A DNA stretch of 64,000 bases from an uncultured delta proteobacterium (GTDB taxonomy: Bacteria > Desulfobacterota > Desulfomonilia > UBA1062). Below are positions 17,728-41,764 of the stretch, one piece after another. The stretch covers positions 32,001 to 96,000 of the forward strand of contig CAVVYZ010000005.1 in NCBI GenBank assembly GCA_963752595.1. The letters are read 5' to 3'. Numbering within the stretch: position 1 is the first letter of the stretch; every line of letters begins with the position of its first letter. Both the position numbers and the translations under genes were made by a program. The notes beneath the pieces are model-generated. The model was not told the DNA's origin, did not search any database, and saw only the letters and a list, made by a program, of their open reading frames with translations.

Positions 17728-20700
17728 TCACAGCTCGGTCTTATCGAATACATCCAGACGGACATATTCCTTTTCCATCCTCTGGAGCATCTCCTCGCCG
17801 CCATCGACCTTACCGGATTTCCCCAGATTCTCCATTTCCATGGCCGCCCCTGAAAGATCGTCGGCACAAATGTTCGCAGCCCCTCCCTTGATGGAATGTG
17901 CCTCTTTGCGTACCGTTTCCGCGTCCCCCTGCTGAATGGCCTTGCGGATGATTTCTATCTGCTTGCCTACATTCTGCAGAAATCCCCCCAGAATCTCCCT
18001 GAGAAAATCCCTGTCGGCATCGAATTCATTCATTACCCTTTCCAGATCTATGGGACACCCATTTTTATCCATGGACTTATCACCTTTCCCTTCCTCTGGT
18101 TGCAGTTGTCTGGCAGAGTCACCTTTCATCGTGTCCTTCTTTTTTGTCCATCTGTCTACCATTTCAATCAATTCTTCCCTCCGGAGAGGCTTGGCTATGT
18201 AATCATCCATACCGGCTTCGATGCATTTATCACGGTATCCGGTAATGGCGTGTGCGGTCATCGCTATGATCGGGATTCTCTTCCGATGCTCCGATGATCC
18301 CGGCGGCAACTTGGAGCTTAGTTTCTCCTCCCACCCTCGAATCTGCTTTGTAGCTTCGTACCCGTCCATGATCGGCATCTGGATATCCATGAGGATGAGG
18401 TCATAACGTTTTCGCTTGAAAGCAGCTACCGCCTGCTGGCCGTTCTCCGCGACCTCGGCCTGGTACCCTGCCTTGAAGAGATGCCTCATGGCAACCTGCT
18501 GGTTGGTGGGATAATCTTCTGCAAGAAGGATCTGGATATCGCCTCGATAATCCTCCACCACGGTATGCCTGGTAATGAGTTTGGAGATCTCTTCCGTATC
18601 CTCTGCCTTGGAAATACCCATGACGGACAAAATGGCCTTTTTGAGGTCGTCCCTGCGCATCGGCTTAGGCAGATAACCCTGGATGCCGATATCCTTGCAA
18701 TACTTACCGTCACCGAGGTCTCCGAGTGATGTCAGGATAATGATGGGTATCTTCTTCAAGGATTTTACCGCCCGTATCTCTTTTGTTAATTCGAAACCAT
18801 TCATATCCGGCATATTGAAATCCAGGAGGATCAGATCAAAGGGCTCATTGAGGATAATCCCCGCCCTGAGCAGGGATACAGTCTCCTGTCCTCCCGGATA
18901 GTCGACAGGGATACAGCCCCATGTTTTCAGGTACTCCATGAGGATGAACCGGTTTGTCTCGTTGTCATCAACCACCAGCACCCGCATGCCTTTGATATCC
19001 ACCTCGTCAAGTACGGGATATATTCTCTGGTCTTTCTGCTTTGGAAAAGCAGCCGTGAAGAAAAAGGTGCTCCCCTCACCCTCGATGCTATAGACGCCGA
19101 CTTTCCCTCCCATCATCTCAACGATCTTTTTCGAGATTGCAAGCCCTAGGCCGGTGCCTCCGTACTTCCTCGTGGTAGATCCGTCCGCCTGGGTAAAGCT
19201 CTCGAATATCCTTTCCTGTTTGTCCTTGGGGATTCCGATCCCGGTATCCCGTACACTGAACTTCAGGGAGACCTTATTTTTATATTCCCTATGCTTTTCC
19301 ACCTTGATGAAAATCTCGCCCTTTTCGGTGAATTTCAGGGAATTGCCTGCCAGGTTGGCAATTACCTGGCGCAGCCTCCCCGGATCCCCCATGAGGCGCG
19401 ACGGTACATCGGGGGAGACGAAGGAAATGAATTCCAGCCCTTTCTTTTCCGACCTCATGGCAAAACTGTGGGCCAGATCCTCGATCAGAATTCTCAAGTC
19501 AAAGGGAATCTTCTCCAGCTCATACCGGTCGGCCTCTATTTTCGAGAAGTCCAGGATATCGTTGATGAGATTCAGCAGGATCTCTGATTCTCTGTTGATG
19601 ACACGGACAATATCTCTCTGGTTCTCATCCAGGCTGGTATCCATGGCAAGCTCCGTCATCCCGATGATGCCGTTCAAAGGGGTGCGGATCTCATGGCTCA
19701 TATTGGCCAGGAATTCGCTCTTGGCTCTGTTCTCGGCCTCTGCTTTGAGCTTAGCAGCCTTGAATTCCTCAGTCTGTATCCGCTCGGAGACATCCCGTAT
19801 CAGACCCCTGAAACCCACTGGATTTCCATTCGAATCCCTGATGAGGAGGATCGAGGTTTCCGTAAGGACCTTGCTGCCGTCCTTCCGGATCAGCGTCCAG
19901 CCGAAGGCCTTCTCGGGCTTCCCTGTTTCGAATACCCGTCTGAATGTCTGGAAGACCGTGCGAGCGCCTTCCTCGTCCATTAATATTTTGTAATTCCGAC
20001 CCTTCATTTCTTCGGCTGTAAATCCCATATTCCGGCCCAACGAATCATTAAAGAAGGTGAGATTGCCCGCAAGATCGGTTTCATAGTAACCCTCTTCAAT
20101 GCTCTCGAGGATTGACCGGTACTTGGCCTCGTTCTTCCTGATCTCTTCGTCCGCATTGATACGGTCGGTGATGTCCCGGGTGATACCGACAAAGCCTATG
20201 GGCTTGCCGTTGTCATCGAGCTGGATCGATGCAATGGTATCTGCCCAGAACTCGGTGCCGTCCCCGCGGGTATGCTCGAACTCGAACCTTTTCACAACAT
20301 GGGATACATCTTCACCTTGATCGACCAGGGCCATGATCTCGCCGAATTCGGAAACAACCCTCTTGAACAACTCCCGGCTCATGACATGTCGGACATTCAG
20401 TTTCAATGTCTCCTCGACTGTTGTCCTTGCGACCTGCTTCACCGAGGGGCTGACATAGGTGAAATTGAAATCAAGGTCTGCCGTCCAGATGATGTCATTG
20501 ACGTTCTCTGCCAGGAGACGGTACCGGTGCTCGCTCTCCATGAGTGCCCGCTCTGCCTGGACCCGCTTCGTGACATCCCTGACTATGCCCCGGAATCCGA
20601 CGCATTCGCCGCTGCGGGACAGTACTCGGGAAACAGAGATCTCGCAATTGATCCTTTCACCGCCCTTCTTGATGAAATCCCACGAAACCGGCGCAAGATC

Positions 20701-23700
20701 CCTGCCTGTCTTAAAGACCTCATGAAATGCCGCGAAAATGACATTTGCCTTGTCCCCATCCGCCAGGTCCCGGTAATTCATGCCCACGAGCTCTTCCCTT
20801 CTGCAGGCCGTGATCCTGCATATGGCTCCGTTGCAGAAGGTAAAGGTTCCATCAAGATTCACCTCGTAATACCCCTCCTCGATGCTCTCGAGGATGGTGC
20901 GGTACTTTTCCTCGCTTTCCTTCAGGGCATGCTCGGCATGGACACGGCGTGTGACATCCCGGCCCATTCCCCGGAAACCGATGACTTCCCCAGTCTTGGA
21001 AAGAATGCGCGACACCGAGACCTCGATAAAGATCTGCTCGCCATCGTTTTTCCTGAAGAACTCCCACTGAGTGGAGCCCAGATCCTTGCCTGTCTTAAAG
21101 ACCGTGTTGAAAGTTTTAAATATGACATTGGATGTACCGCCCTTTACAAAACTGCTGTAGTTCGAACCTATGAGCTCACTACTCGTACATCCGAAAATCC
21201 GGCTCATGGAATCGTTAGAAAAGGTAATTTTTCCATCCAGGTCCACCTCGTAGTAACCCTCCTCGATACTCTCGAGGATGGTGCGATATCTCTCTTCGCT
21301 GTCCTTTAATGCGCGCTCGGCCTTTACGCGTTTCGTGACATCCCGGACAATCCCCTGGAAGCCTCTCAATTCACCGCTCTTGGTTAGGGCGCGCGACACC
21401 GAGACCTCGATAAAGATCTGCTCGCCGTCGCTTTTTCTGAAAAATTCCCATTCGGCAGACTCCACATCCTTGCCGGTCGTGAACACGTCATTAAAGGTCT
21501 TATAGATGCCGCGTGCCGTGTTATCGCCTACAAACGAACTATAGCTCATGCCGATGAGTTCTTCATACGTGCATCCGAGAATCCGGCATAGGGAATCATT
21601 GGAAAACGCGAAGTTCCCCTTGAGGTCCACTTCATAATAACCTTCTTCGATGCTCTCAAGAATGGTGCGGTACTTGAACTCGCTCTCTTTCAGCTTGTGC
21701 TCGACCTGGACCCGCTTCGTAACATCTCTGGTAATCCCTCTGAACCCCTTGCATTCACCTCCGCTTGACAATATGCGGGAGATGGAGAACTCGACGTAGA
21801 TCCTCTGTCCATCGTTCCTGATGAATTCGAATTCGACGGATTCAAGATCTTTTCCTGTATTGAAAACCGTACTGTACGTATCTGAAGCAACCTTTGCTTT
21901 ATCTTCATCCGTGAAACGGCTGAAATTCGACCCGATGAGTTCCTGCATGGGGACCTGGGTGATCCTGCAAAGGGAATCGTTTGCAAAGGTGAAGTTTCCC
22001 GTGAGATCTACTTCATAATACCCTTCTTCGATGCTCTCGAGAATGGACCGGTACTTCTCCTCGCTCTTTTTGAGCTGCCTCTGTACCTGGATGCGGTCGG
22101 TCACATCCCGAGCAGACCCCTGCACCCCTGTAGGCACGCCGTTCTTGGAAACGAGGAGGTTTTTGTATTCCAGGATGTGCTCTTTCCCATCATTCGTAAA
22201 AATTACCGTGAGCAGGCCTTCATCCAGATTTTTTTCCTTGATGCGCTTCAGGTATTCGCCGAAGAACGGCTTGTGCCGTTCCGGGATCAGGTCAATGAGG
22301 TTCATGCGGCGGGTCATCTTTTCCCGATAGCCCCATGCATTCTTGGACTGCTCGTTCGTTTCTTCGAAATCAAAATTCCCGTCAAGGTCGTGGAAGTAGA
22401 GAAAATCCGATACATTGTTGAAGATATTCCGGTAGCGCTGCTCGCTTTCTATGAGGGCATGCTCGGACTGGATCCGGTGGGTGACATCCCGGATCATCCC
22501 GCGGAACCCTATACACCCACCATCCTTGCTCAGGATGCGGGAGATCGATCCCTCAATATAGATTTTGCGGCCGTCTCTTTTCCTGATAAACTCCCACTCG
22601 GCCATCGGCTTGTCTTTCTGCGACTCGAATACCTCATGAAAGGTGTTGGAGATCTCCTTCACTAACCCATCATCCATGAATGAGGCATAGTTCGTGCCTA
22701 ACAGTTCCGTGCTGGTGGTCCCTAAGATCCGGAACAGGGAATCATTGCCGAAGGTGAATCTGCCCTTGAGATCTATCTCATAATAGCCTTCCTCAATACT
22801 CTCAAGGATAGTCCGGTACTTCTCTTCGCTCTTCTTGAGCTGCTTTTCGGCATGCAGACGATCCGTGATATCACGGGCAGAACCGCGTACACCGACCGGA
22901 TTGCCTTCCTTATCATATGTCAGGGTATTCCTGTATTCGAGGATACGTTCTGCTCCATCTTTATCAATAATGCATAAGGGTCCCTCATCCTGCCCTTTCT
23001 GTATTATTACCTCCAAGTATTGATCCAACTGGCCACGAAAGCGCTCGGGCATGATATCGCGAAGATTCGTCCTGCCCTGGCTGTCCCTCATGTCTTTCCA
23101 GTTATCCCTGACCGTGTTGTTGCATTCATCATATCTGAAGTAGCCTTCCAGATCGTGGAAGTAGAGATAGTCGGATACATTGTTGAAGATATCCCGGTAG
23201 CGCTGCTCGCTCCGTTTGAGCTGTATTTTCCCCTTAATCCGGTCCGTGATGTCGCTGGCGATCCCCCGTACACCCGCCGGGACGCCGTCCTCGCAAATGA
23301 GAGAATTCCGGTATTCAAGGATACGTTCGCTGCCATCGGTATTGATGACAGAGATAAGCCCTTTGTCTTTGCCTTTCTCTTTAATCCTCTTAAGATATTC
23401 AGAGAACAGGGGCTTATATTTATCGGGCATGAAATCCTTGATATTGCTGTAACGGTTTTCTTCGCCCCTGTAGCCCCACGACTGCTTCATCATATCATTG
23501 GTTTCTTCGAAATCGAAGTTTCCTTCAAGGTCATGGGTAAAGACATAGTCCGAGATGCTGTCGAAAAGGTCGCGGTACTTTTCCTCACTTTTTACGAGGG
23601 CCTCTGTGGCATTGAATCGCTCGGTAATATCCCGGGCAAGCCCACGGGCGCCCATCGGGCCGTTTTCACCGGAAATGAGGAAGGACTTGTATTCAAATAT

Positions 23701-24626
23701 CCGCTCGCCGCCGTTAATGCTCAAGAGCCTGATGATGCCTTCGGCTTTACCTTCTGCCCTGACCCTCTTTACATACTCATCGAATTCACCGCGCACCCTT
23801 GCAGGGATGAGGTCTTTGAGGTTCAGCCGGAGAAGGTCTTTCTCGGTGTAGCCTTCCACCTCCTCATCCACCAGCTTCATCTCTTTGATGAAGCCTTCCA
23901 TGTCATGAAAAAACATGAAGTCGGACGTGTTCTCGAATACGAAGCGGTACTTATCCTCCAGATCTCTGATCTCCCGACTGAATCCCTCTCCCCTCACCAG
24001 CCCTTCCAGACATCCTTTCACTGCCCCGTGCATCAAGCCCTGAACATCTGCCTCCCCTCCGGGAACGAAATTAGTATTATCTATGAGCCTTTCCCCTATG
24101 ATCACGAGGGGATAGATCGAAAGGGATTCCATCAGAACATTTGGAGGAGTCTTCTTCATACATAGAGACACAAGATAATGCATGATTCCGCCCTGTTCAG
24201 CGAAAGTAGCTTGCCCATGAAGGACTTGAAAGATCCATGGGAAAGGAATTGTGCCGGAAGGCTGCTGATATCGAGACAGATGCGCACTCCTTTCCATACG
24301 CTCCCCAGGACCTTGTTTACTTCCGAGCTGAGAAACGAGATGAAGGAATCTCCATCGGCAGGGATGTCTTTGTTTGCAAAGCGGGAAAAGCCGGTAATGT
24401 TGGAGGCTGCCTGGTTGATTTCCCCATGTGCGCTTGATTCGGGAATATCTTGTGACTCATGCCCGTTGACAAAGGTGATGAGCTTGTGGCCTTTTTGCAG
24501 GGCATTCGCTGCAAAGCCCTCGATTACGCTTTTGCATTCGTCGTCGCTCGCATAGTAGCATCCAAGATAATCCCCGACCCTTACATGTTTCAGCTCCGAG
24601 GTAATCTGTTTGTAACTCTCGGACAT
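17728..24626 (-). CDS. Giant hybrid sensor histidine kinase: MEDS + 11 PAS + HisKA/HATPase + 2 REC + Hpt (one indel near 24160)
   Basis: ORF 24156-24626 (MEDS-like, ending ILCLY) joins ORF 17728-24297. Motifs FLANMSHEIRTPLNG, GDPGRLRQ, DTGIGI, GGTGLGL, two receivers and AHSIKGGAAN. Confidence 0.9.
21007..21426. repeat. Intragenic PAS-domain duplication: identical 36-nt blocks 384 nt apart
   Basis: GCGCGACACCGAGACCTCGATAAAGATCTGCTCGCC occurs at 21007-21042 and 21391-21426. Confidence 0.85.
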
Positions 24627-28926: not shown

Positions 28927-29346
28927 ATGACAAAAGACGAGATCCTTCAGTTCATCAATGCAAACCCCGCATGCTGCCTTGCCACCGTCGAAGATGATCG
29001 CCCGAGGGTCCGCGGGATGCTCATGTACCGGGCAGACGAAACCGGCATCCTGTTCCATACGGGCGAATTCAAGGATCTCTTCCGTCAGATACAGAAGAAC
29101 CCGCACGCCGAAGCCTGTTTTACCAGCCCTGACGGCGGCATTCAGGTCCGGGTGAGCGGCACTGTCCGGATCATCGAGGACCTGGACCTGAAAAAGGAAA
29201 TCGTAGCCGCCAGAGAGTTTCTCCAGATGTGGGTATACGAAAACGGTTATGATACGCTCAAGGTCTTCCGTTTATCGGACTGCACAGCCACGGTCTGGAC
29301 CTTTGAGACGAACTTCATGCCCAAGGAATATATGGAGCTTACATGA
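28927..29346 (+). CDS. Pyridoxamine 5'-phosphate oxidase-like FMN-binding protein
   Basis: LATVEDDRPRVR, FHTGEFKDLFRQIQKNP and QVRVSG. Confidence 0.82.
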   Translation: MTKDEILQFINANPACCLATVEDDRPRVRGMLMYRADETGILFHTGEFKDLFRQIQKNPHAEACFTSPDGGIQVRVSGTVRIIEDLDLKKEIVAAREFLQMWVYENGYDTLKVFRLSDCTATVWTFETNFMPKEYMELT

Positions 29347-29755
29347 CCGACATGATCTTGGTCAGCTTGGTGAGCTTGATGGGGTGGGAGAGCATGCCCT
29401 CCACCTTGAGCTCGCCGCTCAAGATCTGTTTCAGCACGGTCATACCGGTCTCATCGAAGTAGTACGGCAGGCCGAACTTGATGCTGATGGAATTAAGCCC
29501 GATGATCTTGTCCGAATCGGTCCTTATGACGAGGTCCGGCTTTCCTACGATGCCTTGTTCGATCGTGGCTCTGCCGCCCTTGAAGATAATCGTTACCGTG
29601 GCTTCGATATCCTTGAGGTCTATGGCCACGATACTGTAAAGGCTCTGAAACGTCTTGAGCTTGGCAGGGTTCTGCTTGAGGTTTGATTCCAGCAGCTCGC
29701 CCAGGACAAAGGAAAATGGGACCTCCCCTGCATTGTTCTCAACGATGTCGCACAT
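29339..29755 (-). CDS. SCP2 (sterol-carrier)-like protein
   Basis: VTIIFKGGRATIEQG..PDLVI..ILSGELKVEG pattern. Confidence 0.6.
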   Translation of the reverse strand: MCDIVENNAGEVPFSFVLGELLESNLKQNPAKLKTFQSLYSIVAIDLKDIEATVTIIFKGGRATIEQGIVGKPDLVIRTDSDKIIGLNSISIKFGLPYYFDETGMTVLKQILSGELKVEGMLSHPIKLTKLTKIMSVM

Positions 29756-29770
29756 ATTATACTCCTTTGT

Positions 29771-29813
29771 AAAAAAACGGCAGGGGAGGACAAGGGCACC
29801 CTATCCCCCTGCC
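29771..29813 (-). terminator. Intrinsic terminator after adh
   Basis: GGCAGGGG/CCCCTGCC stem followed by a T-run on the minus strand. Confidence 0.6.
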
Positions 29814-29822
29814 TTGGGGTTA

Positions 29823-30986
29823 TTAAAACGTCTTCTGAAAGATGCCGAGCACCTCAGAAGAGTCCATAACGAGTCTCGGGTTGTTTACGATCGACCCGTC
29901 CGAGAGGCTCATATCCGCAGCTTTTTCGAGATCCGCTATCTTCACGCTGAACTCGGAGAGCTTCTGGGGATGAGCTATCTTCCGGGTGAAGTCCCTTATG
30001 CCGCGGATGGCAGCATGTGCCGCATCCAGGTCATCCATGCCTTTTTCGCGCACTCCGATGGCTTCAGCGACCATGGCATATCCGTCGGCTGATTCCTCAA
30101 GGTTGAATTCCATACAATCGGCCAGGAGGATCCCGTTGGCGACGCCGTGCGGGACATGGGCTACGGCGCCGATGGAATGGGCCATGGCGTGCACGATACC
30201 GACCATGGCATTCCCGAATGCCCAGCCGGCGATGGTGGCTGCTATCTGGACCTGACCCCGTGCATGGAGGTCTGAGCCGTTCTCCACGCAAACCGGAAGA
30301 AACTTGTACAGCAGCCGTATTGCGTGGAGCGCCAGTGCGTCCGTTATGGGCTCGCGCGGGATGGAGTGGATGGCCTCGACCGCATGGGTCATGGCATCCA
30401 TCCCGGTGCTTGCAGTGAGAAGGCGCGGGAGCTTTTCCGTCATTTTGGGATCGAGGATCGCGAGCCGCGGGATATTGTTATTTTCCACCAGAAGGCGTTT
30501 CTGGCCCATCTCTTTATCCATGATCACCGCTACATTCGTCACCTCGCTTCCGGTTCCTGCAGTCGTAGGGATTACGATATGAGGCATCTGAGGCCGGCTC
30601 AGGAGCTGCACGCCGTTATAATCCCGCAACGTTCCGCCCTCGGTCATGAGGATGCACATGCCCTTGGCAGTATCGATGACGCTGCCGCCGCCTACGCTGA
30701 TCACGATATCGGCGCCGTTCTTCCCGGCGAACTCGGCCCCTGCATTAACCACCTCCACACCCGTATCCTGAGGTATGTCGCTGAAGACACCCACACACTT
30801 ATTCCCCAGTGTTTTGACAACGGGATCCACGAGCCCGGCATTGATGATGCCCTTGTCGGCCACCACCACGGCTTTTGTGCCGCCGAGTGATCCCATCTCC
30901 ATCTCGACATCTCTCGATGACCCTACCCCGAAGACGATCTTGGTCGGGCCGAAATAATTGAATGATAAATCCGCATCGTATCCCAT
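29823..30986 (-). CDS. Iron-containing alcohol dehydrogenase
   Basis: VGGGSVIDTAK, IPTTAGTGSEVT, DAMTHAVEA, VHAMAH and PHGVANG. Confidence 0.92.
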   Translation of the reverse strand: MGYDADLSFNYFGPTKIVFGVGSSRDVEMEMGSLGGTKAVVVADKGIINAGLVDPVVKTLGNKCVGVFSDIPQDTGVEVVNAGAEFAGKNGADIVISVGGGSVIDTAKGMCILMTEGGTLRDYNGVQLLSRPQMPHIVIPTTAGTGSEVTNVAVIMDKEMGQKRLLVENNNIPRLAILDPKMTEKLPRLLTASTGMDAMTHAVEAIHSIPREPITDALALHAIRLLYKFLPVCVENGSDLHARGQVQIAATIAGWAFGNAMVGIVHAMAHSIGAVAHVPHGVANGILLADCMEFNLEESADGYAMVAEAIGVREKGMDDLDAAHAAIRGIRDFTRKIAHPQKLSEFSVKIADLEKAADMSLSDGSIVNNPRLVMDSSEVLGIFQKTF

Positions 30987-31041
30987 GAGCTTTCTCCTTA
31001 CTTCGGAGGCCCTTCAAACATCCGGTCCTTAGCACTTACGA

Positions 31042-31494
31042 TCAGCCGATCCATGTAAAGTGAACCTTATCCTTCACGTCATCAGGCCATTCGGTGTCCA
31101 CTTTGCCCAGGATATCGATGACCTTGTTGACCGTCTTGATATTTCTCACCACATAGGGCAGATCGCCCTTCATCTTGAGCTTGCCCTGGAGCAGTCCCTT
31201 GGTGGCATCGAGCTCCTTGAACGCAACCTGCTTCCAGCGCATATAATCTCCGGTCATGACGAACTTGGCACTCTCGGCCTTCTCTTTGTCGCAGACGGCG
31301 AATTCGCCCACGTCGCCGTGCCAGTAGTCCATGTAGACATAGACAGGATCGGGTACGTTCTTCGAAGGATCCGGGTTGCAGATGAGGGAGACGCTCCCTT
31401 CCCAGTCCTTTGCAATCCCCTTGTACTCCGGATCAGCCTGGATAGCAGCCTTATATGCATCCATCCATTCCTGTGTCAGTGCACGCTTACCCAT
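31042..31494 (-). CDS. SCP2 sterol-binding domain protein
   Basis: TQEW..YK..WEG, MDYWHG and WKQV..ELDATKGLLQGKLKMKGDL. Confidence 0.8.
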   Translation of the reverse strand: MGKRALTQEWMDAYKAAIQADPEYKGIAKDWEGSVSLICNPDPSKNVPDPVYVYMDYWHGDVGEFAVCDKEKAESAKFVMTGDYMRWKQVAFKELDATKGLLQGKLKMKGDLPYVVRNIKTVNKVIDILGKVDTEWPDDVKDKVHFTWIG

Positions 31495-31519
31495 ATCGTT
31501 ACCTCCTGATTCATATTTT

Positions 31520-33379
31520 TTATTGGTAGAGTCTTTCTTTCAGCTCATCGAGACCGAGCTCTACAAGCTTTTCCTGTCTGGGGAACCCCCGCTCATCAAG
31601 CCCCCGGATGGCATAATATTCGCTGAGGAGCAGATTCATATCCGGCACCGATCCTGCGGCGCCGCCCTCTTCCAGGGCCGTCATGATCCGCTTGGGCAGG
31701 ACATCGTCTTTTTTCGATACCCCGAGCAGGTTGTTGAAACCGCGCTTGAGCGTCCAGTCGCGCATGCCGGACCGGAGGAGATCATCGAACCCGAACTCGG
31801 AACCGGTAACGGCGTTGAAGGCTGCAAGAAGGGTTTCAGGCTTTATGGAATAGGCCACGTAGTGGCAGATGGCCAGCGAGTTGGCCAGAATGCCGTAGTT
31901 TTCTGAATTGTAGACCAGGGCTGCCTTGCCTTCACTGGTCGTCCCCTGATAGTCGTCCTTCATGTCGAAGAGCTCCGGCCAGGAGGCCATCCCCTGCTCG
32001 GTTGCCAAGGCAAAGTGCTGGAGATGACACGCGCCCCGGTTGGACATCATGTAGGCCAGGCCCATGCCGTGGAAGCCTCTGGGGTCGTGCATCGGGGCTT
32101 CGAGGCCCTTGACGTGAACCACGGCATCGATGGCATCGCCGCCTATCTTTGTGGCCGCCTTCACTGCACCTTCTGCCAGGATGTCTCCGAATCCTTCCCT
32201 GAATGCGATCTTTGTCACGAGGGCAATCACTGCATCCATGTTTCCCCAGGTGAGCTCCAGTCCGTCAAGCTGTTCCTTCGTGACCCGTCCCTTTTCATAG
32301 AGCTCCATGGCAAGAGCAATGGCGGAGCCGCAGCTGATGGTGTCCATGCCGTAGCGGTTGCAGAGCTCGTTGGCCTTGATGACTGCCGAAAGGTCTCCGT
32401 TCATCAGCATGGTTCCGAACACGGCGCAAGTCTCGTACTCGGGACCGGGGCCTTCAACCGACCGGTACGGCCCGTCATCCACCTTGACCACCCTCTTGCA
32501 GGCAATGGGGCAGTTGGCGCAGGCGTGCGCCTTGGTCAGATATTTCTCCCGCATGGTGGGGCCGCTCAAGTTATTCGAGAGATCATATGCACCTCCCGAG
32601 GTCCAGTTCTTCACCGGGACGTCGCCGGTTACCATACCGAGGTCCATATTCGCATCCGAGCCCATCAGATGAAGTCCTTCGGCAAGGGCCGACTCCTTGA
32701 TTTCCTGCATGGCCGCCTTCTGGGCCAGCTTGAACTTCTCATCATCGAACTTCTCGACCTTGCCCGTGCCCCTGACCTGGATCGCCTTGAGCTTCTTTGA
32801 TCCCATGACGGCACCGAGCCCTGCCCTGCCGCTGAAATGGCCCTTGTCATTGCCGATGGCGGCGATCCTCACGAGGTTCTCACCCGCAGGCCCTATGACG
32901 AGGACTTTTAATGACTTATCCTGGAGCTTGAGAATGTCTGTCGTCTCGTAAATATCCTTGCCCCACAGGTGGGCTGCATCGAACAGCTCGGCCTTGGAAT
33001 CTCCCACCGAGAGATAGACCGGTGAGTCTGCCTTGCCTTCGATGACGATCCCGTCATACCCTGCCCGTTTGAGGTCGGGGCCGAAGGTGCCGCCGCAGGC
33101 CGATTCCGCCCAGATACCCGTCTGAGGTGATTTTGCGCAGATGGAAAACCTGGATGTACCCGGAAAACCGCTTCCCACCATGGGGCCGGTCATGATCATA
33201 AGCGGATTGTCGGGAGAGAGCGGGTCGACCGCCAGGGGATAGCGATCGAGGAAAAACTTTGCCGCCAGGCAGCTTCCCCCGATATACTTCTTCAGATCTT
33301 CGGAACCGATGGTGAAGTCCCTGCATTCCTTTCGAGAAAGATTTACCAGTAAAAATTTCCCGGCATATCCTCCGGCCAT
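31520..33379 (-). CDS. aor: Aldehyde:ferredoxin oxidoreductase (W/Mo-bisPTT family)
   Basis: KSPQTG..ESACGG, IGPAGEN, GRAGLGAVMGSKKLKAI, CANCPIAC, GPEYET, GMDTISCG, HDPR and RGACH. Confidence 0.92.
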   Translation of the reverse strand: MAGGYAGKFLLVNLSRKECRDFTIGSEDLKKYIGGSCLAAKFFLDRYPLAVDPLSPDNPLMIMTGPMVGSGFPGTSRFSICAKSPQTGIWAESACGGTFGPDLKRAGYDGIVIEGKADSPVYLSVGDSKAELFDAAHLWGKDIYETTDILKLQDKSLKVLVIGPAGENLVRIAAIGNDKGHFSGRAGLGAVMGSKKLKAIQVRGTGKVEKFDDEKFKLAQKAAMQEIKESALAEGLHLMGSDANMDLGMVTGDVPVKNWTSGGAYDLSNNLSGPTMREKYLTKAHACANCPIACKRVVKVDDGPYRSVEGPGPEYETCAVFGTMLMNGDLSAVIKANELCNRYGMDTISCGSAIALAMELYEKGRVTKEQLDGLELTWGNMDAVIALVTKIAFREGFGDILAEGAVKAATKIGGDAIDAVVHVKGLEAPMHDPRGFHGMGLAYMMSNRGACHLQHFALATEQGMASWPELFDMKDDYQGTTSEGKAALVYNSENYGILANSLAICHYVAYSIKPETLLAAFNAVTGSEFGFDDLLRSGMRDWTLKRGFNNLLGVSKKDDVLPKRIMTALEEGGAAGSVPDMNLLLSEYYAIRGLDERGFPRQEKLVELGLDELKERLYQ

Positions 33380-33715: not shown

Positions 33716-35578
33716 ATGGCTAACCTTATTATGGATGAAAGGGACCAGAAATTCGTTCTGTTCGAGATGCTCGGGGCGGAAAAACTCTGCGATGCTCCGA
33801 AGTATGCAGAGTTCTCCCGGGATATGTTTGAAATGATCCTGAGCGAGGCTCAGAAATTCGCTGTCGAAGAAGTGCTGCCTACACTGGTGGAATCCGACAA
33901 GACGGGCTGCAAGCTCATAAACGGGCAGGTCCATGTCCCGGAGTGCTTCCAGCGTCCGTACAAGCTCTTCTGCGAGGCCGGCTGGAACTGCATGTCATTT
34001 CCTCCGGAGCACGGCGGCCAGGGGCTGCCGTTTCTCATGAGGGTGGCAGCGCATGAGTGGTTCACGCACAACTTTTCTTTCATCTCCTACCCGGGTCTCG
34101 GCGAGGGTGCAGCGCACCTCATCGAATCGTACGGCACGAAAGAGCAGAAGGAAAAATATCTCCCCAACATGCTCACCGGCCAGTGGGGCGGCACCATGTG
34201 CCTGACCGAGCCCGGCGCCGGCACCGACGTGGGCAACCTGAGCACCAGGGCGATCCGTCAGCCTGACGGGACGTTCCTCATCAAGGGCACCAAGATGTTC
34301 ATCACCGGCGGCGATCACGACCTGGCGGAGAACATCATCCACCCGGTGCTCGCCCGCATCGAGGGCGACCCGGCCGGGACAAAGGGCATTTCGATCTTCC
34401 TCGTTCCCAAGTACCTCATCAATGAAGACGGCACTCCCGGCGCACGCAACGACTTCGAGATCGCCAAGATCGAGGAGAAGATGGGCATCCACGGGAGCGC
34501 AACCTGCGTCATCAATTTCGGCGACAACGGCAAATGCAAGGCCGAGCTCATGGGACAGGAACGCGAGGGCATGAAGATCATGTTCCAGATGATGAACGAA
34601 GCCCGGATCTCCACGGGGCTGCAGGGCCTCACCAGTGCGAGCATCGCGTATCTCCACGCGCTCCAGTACGCCAAGGAACGGCTTCAGGGCGCATCGCTGA
34701 TGAATTTCAACAACGCGGAAGCACCGCGCGTGGCCATCATCGAGCATCCGGATGTACGCCGCAACCTCCTGTGGATGAAGTCCAACGTCGACAGCATGCG
34801 CGCCCTCATGTATTACGCGACCATCTGCGGCGACAGGGCATTGACCGCGACCGATGAAGCTGAAATGGATAAATGGATGGGCATCTTCGAAGTGCTCACG
34901 CCTATCTGTAAGGCATACACCACGGATATCGGGTTCAGGGTCACCGAAACAGCCATGCAGGTATACGGCGGATACGGCTATTGCAGCGAGTATCCCGTGG
35001 AGCAGTTCATGCGGGATGAGAAGATCGCCAGCATCTACGAAGGCACCAACGGCATCCAGTCCCTGGACCTCGTGGGAAGGAAGCTCGGCATGAAGAAAGG
35101 CACCTACTTCATGCACATGCTCGGCGAGATGAATGCAACCGTGTCAGCAGCCAAGGGAAACCAGGCCGTCAAGGACCTTGCCGACGATGTGCAGGCAGGG
35201 ATCAATGCTTTGACCGACATGAGCCTCTATTTTGCATCCTGCGCCAAGGCCGGGAAGTTCCTCATCCCGGTGGGAAACGCGTATCCGTTCCTCATGATGA
35301 TGGGCAAGGTCATCTCTGCCTGGATGCTGCTCTGGCAGGCAGACATCGCATCCGGCAAGCTTGCCGCCCTGTGCAACGAGAAGGGCGTGGACATCGCCGA
35401 CCAGGCCGCACTGGGGAATCTTGCAAAGGATAACAAAGAGGCTGCCTTCTATGACGGCAAGCTCAAAGGCGCACGCTACTTCATCAAGAACGTGCTGCCT
35501 GAGATCGAGGGCACCATCAGGTCGATAAAGAGCGAAGATCTCTCCATAATGAACATCTCACAGGAGAGCTTTGCTTAA
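33716..35578 (+). CDS. Acyl-CoA dehydrogenase (~600-aa FadE5/DmdC-like type)
   Basis: GGTMCLTEPGAGTDVG, GTKMFITGGDHD, EEKMGIHGSATC, MMNEAR, QVYGGYGY and IYEGTNGIQSLDL. Confidence 0.92.
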   Translation: MANLIMDERDQKFVLFEMLGAEKLCDAPKYAEFSRDMFEMILSEAQKFAVEEVLPTLVESDKTGCKLINGQVHVPECFQRPYKLFCEAGWNCMSFPPEHGGQGLPFLMRVAAHEWFTHNFSFISYPGLGEGAAHLIESYGTKEQKEKYLPNMLTGQWGGTMCLTEPGAGTDVGNLSTRAIRQPDGTFLIKGTKMFITGGDHDLAENIIHPVLARIEGDPAGTKGISIFLVPKYLINEDGTPGARNDFEIAKIEEKMGIHGSATCVINFGDNGKCKAELMGQEREGMKIMFQMMNEARISTGLQGLTSASIAYLHALQYAKERLQGASLMNFNNAEAPRVAIIEHPDVRRNLLWMKSNVDSMRALMYYATICGDRALTATDEAEMDKWMGIFEVLTPICKAYTTDIGFRVTETAMQVYGGYGYCSEYPVEQFMRDEKIASIYEGTNGIQSLDLVGRKLGMKKGTYFMHMLGEMNATVSAAKGNQAVKDLADDVQAGINALTDMSLYFASCAKAGKFLIPVGNAYPFLMMMGKVISAWMLLWQADIASGKLAALCNEKGVDIADQAALGNLAKDNKEAAFYDGKLKGARYFIKNVLPEIEGTIRSIKSEDLSIMNISQESFA

Positions 35579-35691: not shown

Positions 35692-35838
35692 CAAGCACAA
35701 CAGCGCCGGATACTCGTTAATCGGGGTTAAAACCACCCCCTCATTCCCCCTTCCTTGATAAAATTCAAGCATCAGTATAAATAAATAGTGTTATATGGTA
35801 TATGATTGAAAAAAATCTGCCGGGCGGAGTATGCCTTT

Positions 35839-38628
35839 ATGATCAGCAGCGTCCTGAAAACGAAGCTTGCCATCCCGCCTGCCCAGGCCAATTGGATGAG
35901 CAGGCCCCGGTTGATAAGGCTCCTGAACTCCGGGTTGGAACACAAGCTTACCATTGTTACCGCACCCGCGGGTTTCGGAAAGACAACGCTGCTGGGCGAA
36001 TGGGCAGGGAGCCGGCGAAATATTTTTTCCTGGCTTTCTCTGGATGAGGGCGACAACGATAGTTTGCGTTTCTGGATTCATTTCATTTCATCCCTCCGGA
36101 TGCCGCGGCCGGGGCTCGGCAAGGCAGCTCTCGAAATGCTCCAGTCTTACTCTCCCTCGCAGCTTCCCGTGGAAACGTGCCTGACAACCCTGATCAATGA
36201 ACTATTTGAAGAGAACAAGACCTTTGTCATGGTTCTCGACGACTATCACCTCATCAGCAACCCAGCCATACACACCGACTTGAAGTTTCTCATCGATCAC
36301 ATCCCTCCCCGGTTCCATCTCGTCTTCTCGACCCGGGTAAAAGTCCCGTTTCCCGTCGGGCGCCTGAGAATCAAAAACCAGCTGACCGAGCTCAATGCCG
36401 ATGACTTACGCTTCACGGCCCAGGAGATATCGCTCTTCGCCAAAAAGGTGATCGGGACCAAGCTTGCCGATGCAGATATACCCGCGCTTGGCGCCTACTC
36501 AGAGGGATGGGCTGCAGGATTGCAGATCGCTGCCATCGCCATAAAAAAAGACATGCCCGGAGATGTCCCGCTGGTTTCCAAAGGTTATGAGCACATGATC
36601 GAGTATTTCATGGAAGAGGTGTTTTCCTCCCATCCTGAAAGGATCCAGACATTCCTGCTGGAAACTTCCATTCTCGAACGATTGAGCGGACCGCTGTGCG
36701 ATGCCGTCACCGGGCAGAAAGACAGCGCGGCGACACTCGAAGCGCTCTGTGCAGGAAACATGCTCATCGTTCCTCTGGACCACGAGCGCCGCGAGTACCG
36801 CTACCATGTCCTGTTTGCCGACACGCTGAAAAGCCGCCTCCGGAAACTCGATCCCGGACGCATCCGGAGCCTGCATGCCTTAGCTTCAAGGTGGTTTGTG
36901 GAGAACGACATGCCCGATGAGGGCATCCGCCATGCAATCGAGTCAGAAGACTGGGATCGGGCGGTGGATCTTGTGGACAAATACGCGGGGATCGCGCTGC
37001 TGCGGGGTGAATCGTCGACTGCTCTGCGATGGATGAAGTCGCTGCCTCCGAAGAATATCAGCTCCCACCCCGGGCTCTCCACCGGGTATGCCTGGGCGTT
37101 GTTCTTAAGCAACTTGAGGAACAGGACGGGAATACCCTATGAGGTAATCGGACAGTTCTTAAGGGATGCGGAGAAGGCCTACCTGGAGAAGAATTATGCA
37201 GCAAGGTCGTTTTCCGTGCGTGAACGCCAGGTCATCGGACATGCCAATGCACTGCGGGTATATCTGGCCTATGAACGGGGAGAACCGGCCAATAAGATCA
37301 TCGACCTGTGCAAGCGCAGCCTGACAGGCACGGAAGGAGACTTCCCCATCGTGCGGGCCGGTGTCTACAACATCCTCGGGATGACCTATATGAACATGGA
37401 CGAGCCCGAGGCCGCTGCGAGGGCACTGGAAGAAGCGAGGACCATCGGGTTCGTCGAAGGATTGTGCTTCTCGGTCGTCACGATCGACTGCTTCCGGGCG
37501 TATCTTGCAAAAATCCGCGGAAGGCTCCGGGAATCGGAATCCATGTGCCGCGAGTCTATGAAGACCATCAACGAATCCTTCATAAAGACCCGAAGGTTGC
37601 CGCCTGAGATGCTCGGGCTCATCCAGCTGGTGCTTTCCTATATCCTCATCGAGAAAAACGAACTCAAGACCGCGGACCGGATGCTCCATGAAATCATCAG
37701 GCCGATCCGGCTGCTCAAGGAGACGTTTACCGCCATATCGCACTATACACTGCTCGCCCGCACCAGACTCAGCCAGGGAGCAGACCTGAAGGATGTCTTT
37801 TCCCTGTTGACGGAAATCGGGCTCATGGAGCAGTCATGCCCCGGAGCCGGGGCGCATTCCGCTGCGCTGCGCATCCGGTTCCTGCTCCAGCGCTACCGTG
37901 ACAACCCTTCTTTCCTGGAATCCGCCTTCCGGCTGGCAGACCAGTACGGCTTTCAATTAAGCAGCCAGGCAAGGCCGTACATCAATCCTTTGGCAAAACA
38001 GTGGTATCACACGGAGCAGCTCTCCCTGGTCCGGCTCTCGCTTGCCGAGGCGGACGTGAGGCCCCGGAGCCGGTGCCGCCTCCCCCTTGAGGAGGTACTC
38101 CCTTTTCTTGAAGCAGTCTTGGCCAAGGCAGGGAAAGAAGGCTGGGGTGAGCTGGAAATCGAAGCGCTCATGCTGACCGCACTGGTGCATCATGCACGAG
38201 AGGACGAAGGACAGGCAATGGCTGCACTCGAAAGCGCCTTTTCTCTGGCCGAGCCGGAAGGATATGTACGCATCTTTGCCGAGGAAGGAGCGCCCATGGC
38301 CGGGCTGCTTCGCCAGGCAATCGCCAAGGGCATATATCCTGGTTTTGCCGCCAAGCTGCTGGAGGCCGCACAAGGGGAATCCGGAAGCGGCCGGCCTTCA
38401 TCAGCCATTCCGGATGACCTGTTCAACGCGCAGATAGAACGTTTGAGCCGGCAGGAAAACGCCATCCTCAAACTCATTGCAGACGGCCTCTCGAACCAGG
38501 AAATTGCCGATGAGCTCTGCATTGCCCTGACAACGGTCAAAACTCACAATTACAATATCTTCAGCAAGCTCAACGTAAAAAAGCGCTTCCAGGCAGTAAA
38601 AAAGGCAAAACAATTGAATCTTCTGTAA
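35839..38628 (+). CDS. MalT/AlkS-like large ATP-binding LuxR (LAL) regulator
   Basis: LKTKLAIP, APAGFGKTTL (Walker A), WLSLDEGDND, VLDDYH, EGWAAGLQ, YRYHVLF and the C-terminal LuxR HTH GLSNQEIADEL..TVKTH. Confidence 0.92.
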   Translation: MISSVLKTKLAIPPAQANWMSRPRLIRLLNSGLEHKLTIVTAPAGFGKTTLLGEWAGSRRNIFSWLSLDEGDNDSLRFWIHFISSLRMPRPGLGKAALEMLQSYSPSQLPVETCLTTLINELFEENKTFVMVLDDYHLISNPAIHTDLKFLIDHIPPRFHLVFSTRVKVPFPVGRLRIKNQLTELNADDLRFTAQEISLFAKKVIGTKLADADIPALGAYSEGWAAGLQIAAIAIKKDMPGDVPLVSKGYEHMIEYFMEEVFSSHPERIQTFLLETSILERLSGPLCDAVTGQKDSAATLEALCAGNMLIVPLDHERREYRYHVLFADTLKSRLRKLDPGRIRSLHALASRWFVENDMPDEGIRHAIESEDWDRAVDLVDKYAGIALLRGESSTALRWMKSLPPKNISSHPGLSTGYAWALFLSNLRNRTGIPYEVIGQFLRDAEKAYLEKNYAARSFSVRERQVIGHANALRVYLAYERGEPANKIIDLCKRSLTGTEGDFPIVRAGVYNILGMTYMNMDEPEAAARALEEARTIGFVEGLCFSVVTIDCFRAYLAKIRGRLRESESMCRESMKTINESFIKTRRLPPEMLGLIQLVLSYILIEKNELKTADRMLHEIIRPIRLLKETFTAISHYTLLARTRLSQGADLKDVFSLLTEIGLMEQSCPGAGAHSAALRIRFLLQRYRDNPSFLESAFRLADQYGFQLSSQARPYINPLAKQWYHTEQLSLVRLSLAEADVRPRSRCRLPLEEVLPFLEAVLAKAGKEGWGELEIEALMLTALVHHAREDEGQAMAALESAFSLAEPEGYVRIFAEEGAPMAGLLRQAIAKGIYPGFAAKLLEAAQGESGSGRPSSAIPDDLFNAQIERLSRQENAILKLIADGLSNQEIADELCIALTTVKTHNYNIFSKLNVKKRFQAVKKAKQLNLL

Positions 38629-39134: not shown

Positions 39135-40172
39135 ATGATGAGCTATGTAGTCCTGAATAAAGACCAGCTGAACAACTTCATCGTACAGCTCTCGGCAAGG
39201 CAGAAGGTGGTTGCCGCGGTCCATAAGGGGAATAACCAGTATGCATTCGAGGAGGTGCGGTCCGGGGACCGGATCTCGATCAGGTATATACCGACCATCC
39301 TGCCTCTAAAAAAGTATTTCGTGCCCCAGTATGAGACTCTGCTCGAGTATGACGTCAGGGAAGTCCCGAAGACCAAGGTGGTCGTGGAGTACGAGCCTCT
39401 GGTGCTGTTCGGGGTCCATACCTGCGACCTGGCAGGGATCCAGTGCCTGAACATCGTCCTTTCGGACAGGCCCAAGGACCTGCACTACCTGTTCCGGAAG
39501 AACAAGCTGATCATCATGGGCCTGGAATGCAACGATTACTGCGACGGCTATGCCAGCTGCTCACTGATGGGCAACCATCTGCCCTTCGGCGGATACGACC
39601 TGTTCTTTACCGAGCTCGACGAGTCGTTCATCATCCATGTTCAGACAAAGACAGGCGATGATCTCATAGAACAAATGGATTTCATCAGGAAGGCTGAGCC
39701 GTCCCACATGAACGCCCTCGAAGAGGTCCGGGCCCGCAAGAGGGAGATCTTCAGAAACGAGGTGGATCTGGAGCGGGATGAAATACCAATTCTGTTCGAC
39801 AAAGGCTTCGACCATCCCGTGTGGAAAGAGATCGGGGAGCGCTGCCTTTCCTGCGGAAACTGCACCAATGTCTGCCCCACCTGCTACTGCTTCGATGTCA
39901 TGGACATCCCGAACCTCGATCTTACCACAGGCAGGAGGGTCAGGGTCTGGGATTCCTGCCAGAACGAGCCATTTGCCAAGATAGCCAGCGGAGAGAGCTT
40001 CCGGGCCGAGAGGAGCGACCGGCTGCGCCACCGCTTCTACCGGAAGTTCAAGTACCACAACCAGCGGTTCAATCGGTATTACTGCACCGGATGCGGGAGA
40101 TGCACCCGCACTTGTATGGCAAAGATCAATCTCAAGGAAACCATTACCGCGCTGAAGAAGGTGCCGCTATGA
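39135..40172 (+). CDS. Group 3b hydrogenase iron-sulfur (beta, AsrA-like) subunit
   Basis: FGVHTCDL, CLSCGNCTNVCPTCYCF, WDSC and CTGCGRCTRTC. Confidence 0.88.
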   Translation: MMSYVVLNKDQLNNFIVQLSARQKVVAAVHKGNNQYAFEEVRSGDRISIRYIPTILPLKKYFVPQYETLLEYDVREVPKTKVVVEYEPLVLFGVHTCDLAGIQCLNIVLSDRPKDLHYLFRKNKLIIMGLECNDYCDGYASCSLMGNHLPFGGYDLFFTELDESFIIHVQTKTGDDLIEQMDFIRKAEPSHMNALEEVRARKREIFRNEVDLERDEIPILFDKGFDHPVWKEIGERCLSCGNCTNVCPTCYCFDVMDIPNLDLTTGRRVRVWDSCQNEPFAKIASGESFRAERSDRLRHRFYRKFKYHNQRFNRYYCTGCGRCTRTCMAKINLKETITALKKVPL

Positions 40173-41011
40173 GCAGGGAGAAGGTGATCATCAGGAATTC
40201 TTCCTATGAGATAAAGCCTGCCGGGATCGTCCGGAAAAGGGTGCTCACGGACAAGGAACAGCTGTTCGAGATAGCGTTCGACAGCGGAGAGCTCCTCGAC
40301 CACGAGCCGGGCCAGTTCGTCGAGGTGTCCATCCCCGGGGCCGGAGAAGCCCCGATCTCCGTCTGCTCCTCGCCCACGCTGCAGGGGAGCTTTGAGCTCT
40401 GCGTGAGGAAGATCGGCAAGGTGACCACTGTCCTGCACCACCTGGAGGTGGGCGACGAGATCGGCATCAGGGGGCCGTTCGGCAAGGGCTTCCCGGTCAG
40501 CATCCTCGAAGGTAACGACCTCCTGATGATAGCGGGCGGCCTCGGGCTGGCCCCGCTGCGCTCGCTCATCAATTACGTCATGGACAACCGCCGCGACTTC
40601 GGTCATGTTTCCATCCTGCTGGGCTGCAATACGCCAGGGAGCATCCTGTTCGGCGACGAGGTCGAAGCCTGGGGCGAGCGCACCGATGTCAGCTTCGAGT
40701 GCACGGTGGACAGGGCCGAACCCGACTGGAAGGGGCATGTTGGGGTGATAACCACGCTGATACCGGGTATCAGCCTCGACCCCCACTATACCTTCGGCAT
40801 CATCGTCGGCCCGCCGGTGATGTACAAGTTCGTGATAAAAGAGCTGCTCGGCAAGGGCGTTCCCGAGGACCAAATCCTGGTGTCCCTGGAGAGGCACATG
40901 AAGTGCGGCCTGGGCAAGTGCGGCCACTGCCAGATCCATAATATCTACTGCTGCCAGGACGGGCCTGTCTTCCGCTACAGCCGGATAAAAAACTTGCGGG
41001 GTGCTATCTGA
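40169..41011 (+). CDS. Group 3b hydrogenase FAD/NAD(P)-binding (gamma) subunit
   Basis: PGQF..GEAPISVCS, RGPFGKGF, AGGLGLAPLRS and LERHMKCGLGKCGHC..CQDGPVF. Confidence 0.88.
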   Translation: MSREKVIIRNSSYEIKPAGIVRKRVLTDKEQLFEIAFDSGELLDHEPGQFVEVSIPGAGEAPISVCSSPTLQGSFELCVRKIGKVTTVLHHLEVGDEIGIRGPFGKGFPVSILEGNDLLMIAGGLGLAPLRSLINYVMDNRRDFGHVSILLGCNTPGSILFGDEVEAWGERTDVSFECTVDRAEPDWKGHVGVITTLIPGISLDPHYTFGIIVGPPVMYKFVIKELLGKGVPEDQILVSLERHMKCGLGKCGHCQIHNIYCCQDGPVFRYSRIKNLRGAI

Positions 41012-41764
41012 ATGGAAAAACCGAAGACCGCCTTCTTCGATTTTGCCTGCTGTGAAGGGTGCCAGCTTCAGGTGGCCAATCTGGGGGAGACTCTCCTGGA
41101 TCTGCTGGGCTCCATCGAGCTGGTCGAGTTCCGCGAGGCGATGTCCGAGAAATGGGACAAAAACTATGACATCGCCGTCATCGAGGGGAGCATTACCACC
41201 CCGCATGCCGCAGAGCGGATACGCAGGATCAGGGAGCGATCAAGGATTCTGATTGCGTACGGATCGTGCGCGACCATAGGCGGGGTAAACGGGATCAAGA
41301 ACTCGTTTGACCTGGATGAGATACGCCAATACGTCTATACCCATGATTACCGGTTCTATCCCTCGGAAAAGACCAGGGCCGTGCATCAAACGGTGCAGGT
41401 GGATTATTTCGTGACCGGCTGCCCGGTGTATCCGCCCGAGTTCCTCGAGGTGCTGAAGGCTGTCCTCCTGGGCATCCCGTACCATGTGCCGGATAAAGCC
41501 GTGTGCGTCGAATGCAAGCTCAACGAGAATATCTGCATGTACGACCGCGGGGTCACCTGCCTGGGCCCGGTAACCAGGGCCGGGTGCAACTCCTGGTGCA
41601 TAAATAACGGGAACATCTGCTACGGATGCAGGGGCATGGTTTCCAACCCCGCCGAGAACGCCATGAAGCAGGTGATCGAGATGTACCGGATCCCCCTGGA
41701 TCTGATCATCAGGAAAATGGACATGTACAACAAATGCAGAGAGATCGACGAACATGGATCATAA
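41012..41764 (+). CDS. [NiFe]-hydrogenase small (delta) subunit
   Basis: FACCEGCQ, IEGSI, GSCATIGG, GCPV, VCVECK and CLGPVTRAGC..CYGCRG. Confidence 0.9.
   Translation: MEKPKTAFFDFACCEGCQLQVANLGETLLDLLGSIELVEFREAMSEKWDKNYDIAVIEGSITTPHAAERIRRIRERSRILIAYGSCATIGGVNGIKNSFDLDEIRQYVYTHDYRFYPSEKTRAVHQTVQVDYFVTGCPVYPPEFLEVLKAVLLGIPYHVPDKAVCVECKLNENICMYDRGVTCLGPVTRAGCNSWCINNGNICYGCRGMVSNPAENAMKQVIEMYRIPLDLIIRKMDMYNKCREIDEHGS

Follow-up and report, generated by a model that had tools for sequence, protein, structure and literature searches.

A conserved AOR-SCP2-ADH-SCP2 gene cassette in uncultured Desulfomonilia: a candidate for carrier-assisted oxidation of hydrophobic alcohols

Introduction

The interconversion of alcohols, aldehydes and acids by an alcohol dehydrogenase (ADH) together with an aldehyde:ferredoxin oxidoreductase (AOR) is well established, as is the binding of lipids by SCP2-fold proteins such as UbiJ and UbiT. 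Here we describe a four-gene unit, aor-scp2a-adh-scp2b, in which these two elements are combined. It lies on the minus strand of a 64,000-nucleotide stretch of DNA (positions 32,001 to 96,000 of contig CAVVYZ010000005.1, assembly GCA_963752595.1; the whole stretch is hereafter called the window) from an uncultured delta proteobacterium of the Desulfomonilia, and is considered as a candidate system for the oxidation of poorly soluble alcohols.

The two-enzyme route of ADH and tungsten AOR, as represented by the AOR of Clostridium autoethanogenum (CaAFOR; PDB 9G7J), that of Pyrococcus furiosus (1AOR) and the Class I WORs, shares with this locus a single-subunit AOR with its Fe-S cysteines and catalytic Glu and His, a neighbouring ADH, and the absence of a polyferredoxin or FAD subunit gene; the cassette differs by its two built-in SCP2 genes and by an altered second shell of the AOR. 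One of its SCP2 proteins, SCP2a, belongs by both sequence and fold to the same subfamily as Thermus TT1886 (structures 1WFR and 2CX7), which we take to be the protein also called TTHA0401. The latter is placed in the FadR regulon and is co-transcribed with a Zn-dehydrogenase, and its operon, as described in the available part of that report, differs from the cassette in having neither an AOR nor an Fe-ADH (PMC5597230). The closest solved relative of the window ADH is BdhE (9LDL), which, according to the accessible text, has a fused NAD-dependent aldehyde dehydrogenase (ALDH) and a channel, whereas the cassette uses a separate tungsten enzyme (PMC12454647); by analogy, the SCP2 pair may stand in for a channel of the BdhE type. 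UbiJ (6H6O) and UbiT are likewise SCP2-fold accessories encoded with enzymes that act on hydrophobic intermediates, and UbiT binds the isoprenoid tail of ubiquinone (bioRxiv 10.1101/2020.03.22.002311; PMC9499169, as far as these sources were available). They differ from the proteins described here in that they belong to proteobacterial quinone biosynthesis, whereas the cassette stands in a context of redox catabolism and contains two SCP2 families.

A literature search covering few subscription journals yielded no paper on the combination of SCP2, ADH and AOR, and no characterised anaerobic entry enzymes for fatty or isoprenoid alcohols were found in the literature searched. The words SCP, sterol and lipid are absent from the main text, in the form available, of the WOR classification (PMC13328260). 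ADH plus AOR chemistry and SCP2 carriers are each known, and their combination is an uncharacterised variant of a known route. A supposed precedent in Sterolibacterium, in which a steroid C26 aldehyde would be oxidized by a tungsten AOR together with an SCP2 protein, was dropped: PMC7411048 and PMC11061730 describe an NAD-dependent ALDH, and no SCP term occurs in the parts available.

Results

The unit consists of four minus-strand open reading frames (ORFs), namely aor (33379-31520; 619 aa; PF02730 and PF01314), encoding a single-subunit tungsten-type AOR (WorL); scp2a (31494-31042; 150 aa; PF02036), encoding a stand-alone SCP2 fold of the Thermus TT1886 type; adh (30986-29823; 387 aa; PF00465 and PF25137), encoding a group III (iron-type) ADH; and scp2b (29755-29339; 138 aa; PF02036), encoding a divergent SCP2 fold with an inserted GLP-x-x-F-D hairpin. 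The intergenic gaps are 25 bp (aor-scp2a), 55 bp (scp2a-adh) and 67 bp (adh-scp2b). This corresponds to the cluster described in an earlier note on the window, coordinates and the two shorter gaps included, and its naming of both small proteins as SCP2 was confirmed: PF02036 scored above the cut-off of 21.3 bits with SCP2a (39.8 bits) and, barely, with SCP2b (23 bits), and the top Foldseek matches of both were all of the SCP2 fold. The alcohol-aldehyde-acid route that the note had assigned to ADH and AOR is likewise supported. Given ~8 SCP2 genes per 4.1 Mb, any particular gene has a probability of ~0.6% of lying within 1.5 kb of one; this figure and the occurrence of the same order in other genomes exclude a chance linkage. 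The completeness of the host assembly is 84%, and frameshifts occur in several of its other genes.

A genome search seeded with SCP2a, the kind of synteny check that the note had suggested, gave 34 loci and showed the linkage to be conserved, with aor directly upstream in 30, adh directly downstream in 31 and all four genes in order in 25. Among the other nine, five are cut by contig ends, two are distant, and two carry scp2a-adh-scp2b without aor, an aor orthologue (67-69%) being located elsewhere in the genome. The four-gene order is kept down to ~50% AOR identity across the Desulfobacterota. Because this search began from SCP2a, reverse searches from AOR and ADH were run on 351 Desulfobacterota genomes, the AOR search scoring three candidates per genome. 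The AOR matches split into 23 with at least 614 bits (at least 50% identity) and a remainder with at most 538 bits; 15 of the 23 adjoin scp2a, one lies at a contig edge, and two belong to genomes that hold scp2a-adh-scp2b elsewhere. In a quick tree of 48 rows, in which long branches were flagged, the AORs of at least 50% identity formed one clade (support 99), members without SCP2 neighbours included, and among nine hand-picked next-tier AORs (42-46% identity) a single one had an SCP2 neighbour. The ADH search returned 20 unfused matches of at least 374 bits, with scp2b directly behind 19 of them and the twentieth at a contig edge, and with scp2a directly in front of 19. The tightest unit is SCP2a-ADH-SCP2b, not AOR-SCP2. 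The linkage described in the note is supported, with the change that the SCP2 genes follow ADH and each other more tightly than they follow AOR.

Two cassettes in records labelled Nitrospirota (L027 and L028), at 74-79% identity, are nested among Desulfomonilia sequences; a transposase gene is found near the former and an integrase gene near the latter. Two SCP2-less members of the AOR clade (L088 and L089) are located after FAD_binding_4/CCG/FAD_binding_4 genes and before an acyl-CoA dehydrogenase gene.

The two domains of the window AOR (AFOR_N and AFOR_C) scored 251 and 421 bits, above the curated cut-offs, and its best PDB matches were 9G7J, 9MQX and 1AOR. In an alignment of 30 cassette AORs, C287, C290, C294, C505, E316, H431 and H452 were invariant, and the four [4Fe-4S] cysteines aligned to the cysteines of 1AOR. 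Conserved second-shell residues have been described at Thr243, Glu313, Tyr427 and His448 (P. furiosus numbering), with Tyr-to-His and Thr-to-Ser each given as a single tolerated change and the former present also in the AOR of C. formicoaceticum and in ASOR (PMC12096430, available part). The second-shell Glu and His are retained in the cassette AORs; the Tyr427 position is His (H431) in all 30, the Thr243 position is Ser in 21 and Thr in nine, and the Tyr452 position is Tyr in none. The window AOR carries both the Tyr-to-His and the Thr-to-Ser change. Neither WorS polyferredoxin nor WorN genes were found in the window cluster or as conserved neighbours of the cassettes, and a WorL alone, without a small-subunit gene, fits Class I as defined in the accessible text of the WOR classification (PMC13328260). 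The host genome contains a TupABC-like operon (L102; G000:C5:314500-319500) whose best models are TupA, TupB and WtpC, all below cut-off, and moeA genes adjoin two cassettes (L029 and L030) and the aor of L157. These genes are indirect pointers to a tungsten-bis-pyranopterin cofactor in this putative aldehyde-oxidizing enzyme. A gene for a regulator with a periplasmic-binding domain lies upstream of the TupABC-like operon.

In the ADH, D197, H201, H266 and H280, the GGGS motif at 99-102 and D44 were invariant (30 rows). The first four correspond to the metal ligands of FucO, and the Asp is at the position that marks NAD use. The best PDB match was the ADH domain of BdhE (9LDL; E 9e-95), although, unlike BdhE, the 387-aa window protein stands alone and has no fused ALDH domain. 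None of 17 NCBIfam families for named Fe-ADH equivalogs (ErcA, FucO, GbsB, EutG, AdhE and others) was reached, the best score being 310 bits versus 550. Two BdhE-like ALDH-ADH fusions (L091:2671-5919 and L092:3620-6331) were placed inside the SCP2-flanked ADH clade (FastTree, support 95), and that of L092 is followed by an SCP2-like gene; these two rows suggest that the ADH domain of BdhE may have come from the SCP2-flanked clade.

The two SCP2 proteins belong to different SCP2 subfamilies and did not match each other (tblastn, E 1e-4, host genome). AlphaFold2 models had pLDDT values of 89.8 for SCP2a and 81.5 for SCP2b. The best fold match of SCP2a was Thermus TT1886 (2CX7; E 1e-10; TM 0.76/0.87), in line with its sequence match to 1WFR/2CX7 (E 4e-14). 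Relatives of SCP2a are 140-143 aa long, and the final eight residues of the window protein are of low confidence; its basic residues R86, K88, K93, K99, K105, K107, K109, R117 and K120 are kept in at least 85% of 52 rows. Among close relatives the identity of SCP2a is 79-87%, versus 74-85% for AOR. SCP2b had its best fold match in the SCP2 domain of UbiJ (6H6O; E 1.5e-7), and its residues 88-99 have low pLDDT in the monomer model. Prediction of an SCP2a-SCP2b complex gave an ipSAE of 0.43 versus 0.00 for the best of three controls, with contacts agreeing by at least 97% between runs and a partner pLDDT of at least 84. Of 157 solved complexes 116 pass the mark for a complex, as do two of 215 mismatched pairs, and scores of at most 0.60 take in just 18 of the 157 solved complexes, but both passing mismatches; the models thus point weakly to a heterodimer.

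A HMMER profile search of 1.84 billion representatives revealed a 717-aa fusion protein (P0263) with SCP2a at the N-terminus, followed by an Fe-ADH and an SCP2b-like C-terminus. The Fe-ADH part is 43% identical to the window ADH and the SCP2b-like part 28% identical to its counterpart (E 6e-14). P0263 is a singleton present on two contigs and may therefore be an artefact. Longer SCP2a fusions were not found by a word-indexed search, which is a weak method, and no AOR-SCP2a fusion was present among the nine longer profile-search matches examined. Using an actinobacterial SCP2a as query, 19 metagenome loci were obtained, four of which show the order scp2a-ZnADH-scp2b and two scp2a-FeADH-scp2b (one annotated Myxococcota); in three others scp2a and scp2b lie side by side near genes for 3-hydroxyacyl-CoA dehydrogenase and methylmalonyl-CoA mutase. 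Fe- and Zn-ADHs have different folds, and this arrangement would therefore be explained better by a ligand in common, or by a contact between SCP2a and SCP2b, than by a fixed enzyme interface. In a phylum sample around an Anaerolinea record, 28 of 151 genomes gave matches; at the 30 loci listed, scp2a adjoins aor in nine, Fe-ADH in six, scp2b in four and other genes in 11 (four of them acyl-CoA ligases).

SCP2 domains occur in further contexts in the host genome. At L035:619-12142 (G000:C17) a second, frameshifted AOR gene follows genes for an acyl-CoA dehydrogenase and two SCP2 proteins, and precedes genes for an acyl-CoA ligase, two HGD-D subunits and BadFG-type activators. Clusters of this kind were also seen at L070 and L072-L074. 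A 991-aa glycyl radical enzyme resembling PFL, with an N-terminal SCP2 domain (L041:6083-9058; G000:C1), reached no named family and may be a radical enzyme that acts on a lipid. Finally, a flavodoxin-like NADPH-dependent FMN reductase with a C-terminal SCP2 domain (L037:9042-10133; G000:C5) is encoded ~2 kb from another frameshifted AOR.

The host context provides some indication of the substrate. In two genomes (G217 and G272), representing one lineage, acyl-CoA dehydrogenase and ligase genes lie directly upstream of aor on the same strand, the best models of the ligases being long-chain-fatty-acid-CoA ligases, below cut-off. First-look, unscored counts, in which related genomes are not independent, gave 19-62 acyl-CoA dehydrogenase candidates (median 32) in 19 bacterial cassette genomes and 1-40 (median 12.5) in 30 comparison genomes, 10 of which reach at least 19. 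Phytoene-desaturase-like genes lie near four clade members (L048, L082, L085 and L086), and together with the methylmalonyl-CoA mutase neighbours they hint weakly at methyl-branched or isoprenoid chains. The host genome has 36 PF00441 matches, frameshifted pieces included; dsrA was not found in this 84% complete assembly; and four genes at 39135-43082 of the window form a NiFe hydrogenase operon, which is of the sulfhydrogenase (group 3b-like) type. Together these three findings fit a syntrophic oxidation with release of H2. The hydrophobic substrate proposed in the note is thereby supported indirectly, by the lipid binding of SCP2 and by the lipid-gene context.

Copies of the cassette were also detected in archaea, where the ADH is present in two of 24 genomes of one Halobacteriota class (G374 and G540; loci L033, L157 and L161). 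G374 has scp2a-adh-scp2b with aor elsewhere, and an mcrA match of 229 bits; G540 has all four genes in order, and mcrA was not found in its 1.4 Mb. In several Halobacteriota records the accession numbers of AOR and SCP2a follow one another directly, an observation that speaks against mis-binning. In the ADH tree the archaeal proteins are nested within Smithellaceae-type sequences, and a grouping of the 15 bacterial ADH rows without the archaeal ones, chosen after an earlier, midpoint-rooted tree, was rejected by the approximately unbiased (AU) test (p 0.00055), pointing to a transfer of the cassette ADH into archaea.

A GC-rich hairpin followed by a run of seven U residues is located in the gap between adh and scp2b (29771..29813, minus strand), before the scp2b ribosome-binding site. 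Its folding energy is -25 kcal/mol, with a z-score of -1.48 for the single sequence. When 18 close relatives are compared, 95.6% of cells of the 8-bp stem are paired, compensatory changes occur in four of the eight pairs, and the covariation score was matched by none of 500 shuffles. In six farther cassettes the adh-scp2b gaps are 9-24 nt, with no space for the hairpin. It is likely to be an attenuating terminator or an mRNA-stabilising element, which would reduce the output of scp2b or protect the upstream message, respectively.

Discussion

The reading that we favour, at a probability of roughly 0.55, is that the four-gene unit carries out a carrier-assisted oxidation of poorly soluble, hydrophobic primary alcohols, with the free acid as the product. 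ADH, an iron-type enzyme, would convert the alcohol to the aldehyde with NAD+, and the tungsten-type AOR would oxidize the aldehyde to the acid with ferredoxin, while SCP2a and SCP2b, possibly as the weakly predicted heterodimer, would hold both hydrophobic compounds, the alcohol and the aldehyde, and deliver them to the enzymes. In bacterial hosts capable of beta-oxidation a separate acyl-CoA ligase would activate the acid, and the electrons of NADH and reduced ferredoxin would leave the cell as H2. The basis of this proposal, that is gene identities, folds, intact catalytic residues, conserved order and co-occurrence, is observed; from it we infer medium- to long-chain alkanols or methyl-branched or isoprenoid alcohols as substrates, the oxidative direction and the hand-over by SCP2.

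Several observations weigh against this proposal. SCP2a-type genes also occur beside genes for acyl-CoA ligases, 3-hydroxyacyl-CoA dehydrogenase and methylmalonyl-CoA mutase without ADH or AOR, and so may bind acyl-CoA or the acid instead of the aldehyde. For five AOR-clade matches out of the 23 (G022, G169 twice and G139 twice) the flanking stretches examined contain no SCP2 gene, so a neighbouring SCP2 is no strict requirement of this clade. A PF00441 (acyl-CoA dehydrogenase) match was found in neither G374 nor G540, and thus the product of the archaeal cassette cannot obviously enter beta-oxidation; there, either the substrates include shorter alcohols, or hydrophobic alcohols are oxidized just to the acid. 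BdhE, the nearest characterised relative of the ADH, oxidizes ethanol and choline, more slowly than AdhE, and no long-chain alcohol is named in the accessible part of the report (PMC12454647), and characterised AORs are broad-range enzymes often assigned to detoxification (PMC13328260, available text). The heterodimer score, finally, could reflect a likeness to solved SCP2 dimers.

An alternative is a broad-range ADH and AOR acting on short- and medium-chain substrates, for electron donor use or for detoxification, with the SCP2 proteins as co-regulated buffers of lipid or acyl-CoA that take no part in hand-over. In its favour, the cassette is kept in an mcrA-bearing genome without an acyl-CoA dehydrogenase match, AOR-clade members without SCP2 exist, and, as far as the two sources extend, BdhE acts on ethanol (PMC12454647) and the role assigned to most Class I WORs is the detoxification of aldehydes (PMC13328260). 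A merely co-regulated buffer would not, however, be expected to be fused to both sides of an ADH as in P0263, to surround ADHs of two unrelated families or to accompany the cassette into an archaeon, and among close relatives SCP2a equals the enzymes in conservation; we regard this account as rather doubtful. It appears quite unlikely that the unit works reductively, with AOR reducing a fatty or isoprenoid acid at the expense of reduced ferredoxin, ADH forming the alcohol, either to dispose of electrons or to provide fatty alcohols for the synthesis of wax esters or ether lipids, and SCP2 carrying the products. Wax-ester and ether-lipid genes are not conserved neighbours of the four-gene cassette, the same-strand ligase and acyl-CoA dehydrogenase genes of G217 and G272 fit catabolism, and syntrophic hosts would be short of low-potential electrons. 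This has to be set against the reduction of acids to alcohols by AOR and ADH in acetogens and Thermoanaerobacter (PMC12727526; PMC10816221, each in the part available), the position of a distant scp2a-scp2b pair (L032) near a WS/DGAT gene, and the FAD_binding_4/CCG genes that precede the SCP2-less AORs of L088 and L089.

The SCP2 proteins might also be stable structural subunits that extend the substrate tunnels, SCP2a that of AOR and SCP2b that of ADH, and not mobile carriers. G345 has the cassette in two separate parts, aor-scp2a and adh-scp2b (L042 and L090), as such a division would have it, an scp2a-type gene directly adjoins aor in nine of the 30 Anaerolinea-phylum loci listed, and the triple fusion puts both SCP2 domains on the ADH chain. 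Nevertheless, scp2a stays with adh and not with aor at L029, L033, L053 and L056, the SCP2 sandwich surrounds structurally unrelated Fe- and Zn-ADHs, and the SCP2 pair occurs without either enzyme at L032, L111, L112, L115, L118 and L139-L141, and we consider fixed subunits highly improbable.

Beyond the carrier-assisted oxidation favoured here, the SCP2a/SCP2b heterodimer could be a portable carrier that makes whichever Fe- or Zn-ADH it flanks an oxidase of long-chain or isoprenoid alcohols, the aldehyde then passing to AOR; the methanogen lineage would have taken the unit from Smithellaceae-type syntrophs and would use hydrophobic alcohols as electron donors, via NADH and reduced ferredoxin, without beta-oxidation. 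Taken as a whole this extension is unlikely. The two-family SCP2 sandwich, the triple fusion, the exchange of Fe- and Zn-ADHs, the weak heterodimer prediction and the methanogen-lineage copy are the additions made here. Waxes, chlorophyll and ether lipids are sources of fatty and isoprenoid alcohols that enter anoxic sediments and digesters, and the cassette offers a four-protein candidate for anaerobic alcohol entry in uncultured Desulfomonilia and Smithellaceae. It would add a type of accessory protein unmentioned in the current WOR classification and, next to fusion (AdhE/BdhE) and microcompartments, a third way of handling a reactive aldehyde. Its AOR and ADH may prove to be a useful pair for the reduction of long-chain acids, and its archaeal copy suggests, in a form that can be tested, a new electron donor for methanogenesis.

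Other features of the window

Divergent from the cassette, on the plus strand, lie an acyl-CoA dehydrogenase gene (33716-35578) and a gene for a MalT-like LuxR regulator (35806-38628; PF17874 and PF00196). Their divergent position is as given in the earlier note, which had drawn them into the cluster as an acyl-CoA dehydrogenase and a MalT/AlkS-like regulator; a role in the unit was not upheld, and they were rejected as members, since orthologues were found at one (L001) of the 26 loci with enough upstream DNA. A two-component pair of the HisKA_3/NarL type is located upstream of the cassette in 18 of the 34 loci. A promoter scan gave nothing above shuffles (5 versus 4.1), and the adh-scp2b hairpin was absent from its output. 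Farther along the window (17728-24297), a 2189-aa ORF appears, from its sequence, to contain repeated PAS-like segments and a histidine-kinase/receiver-like C-terminus.

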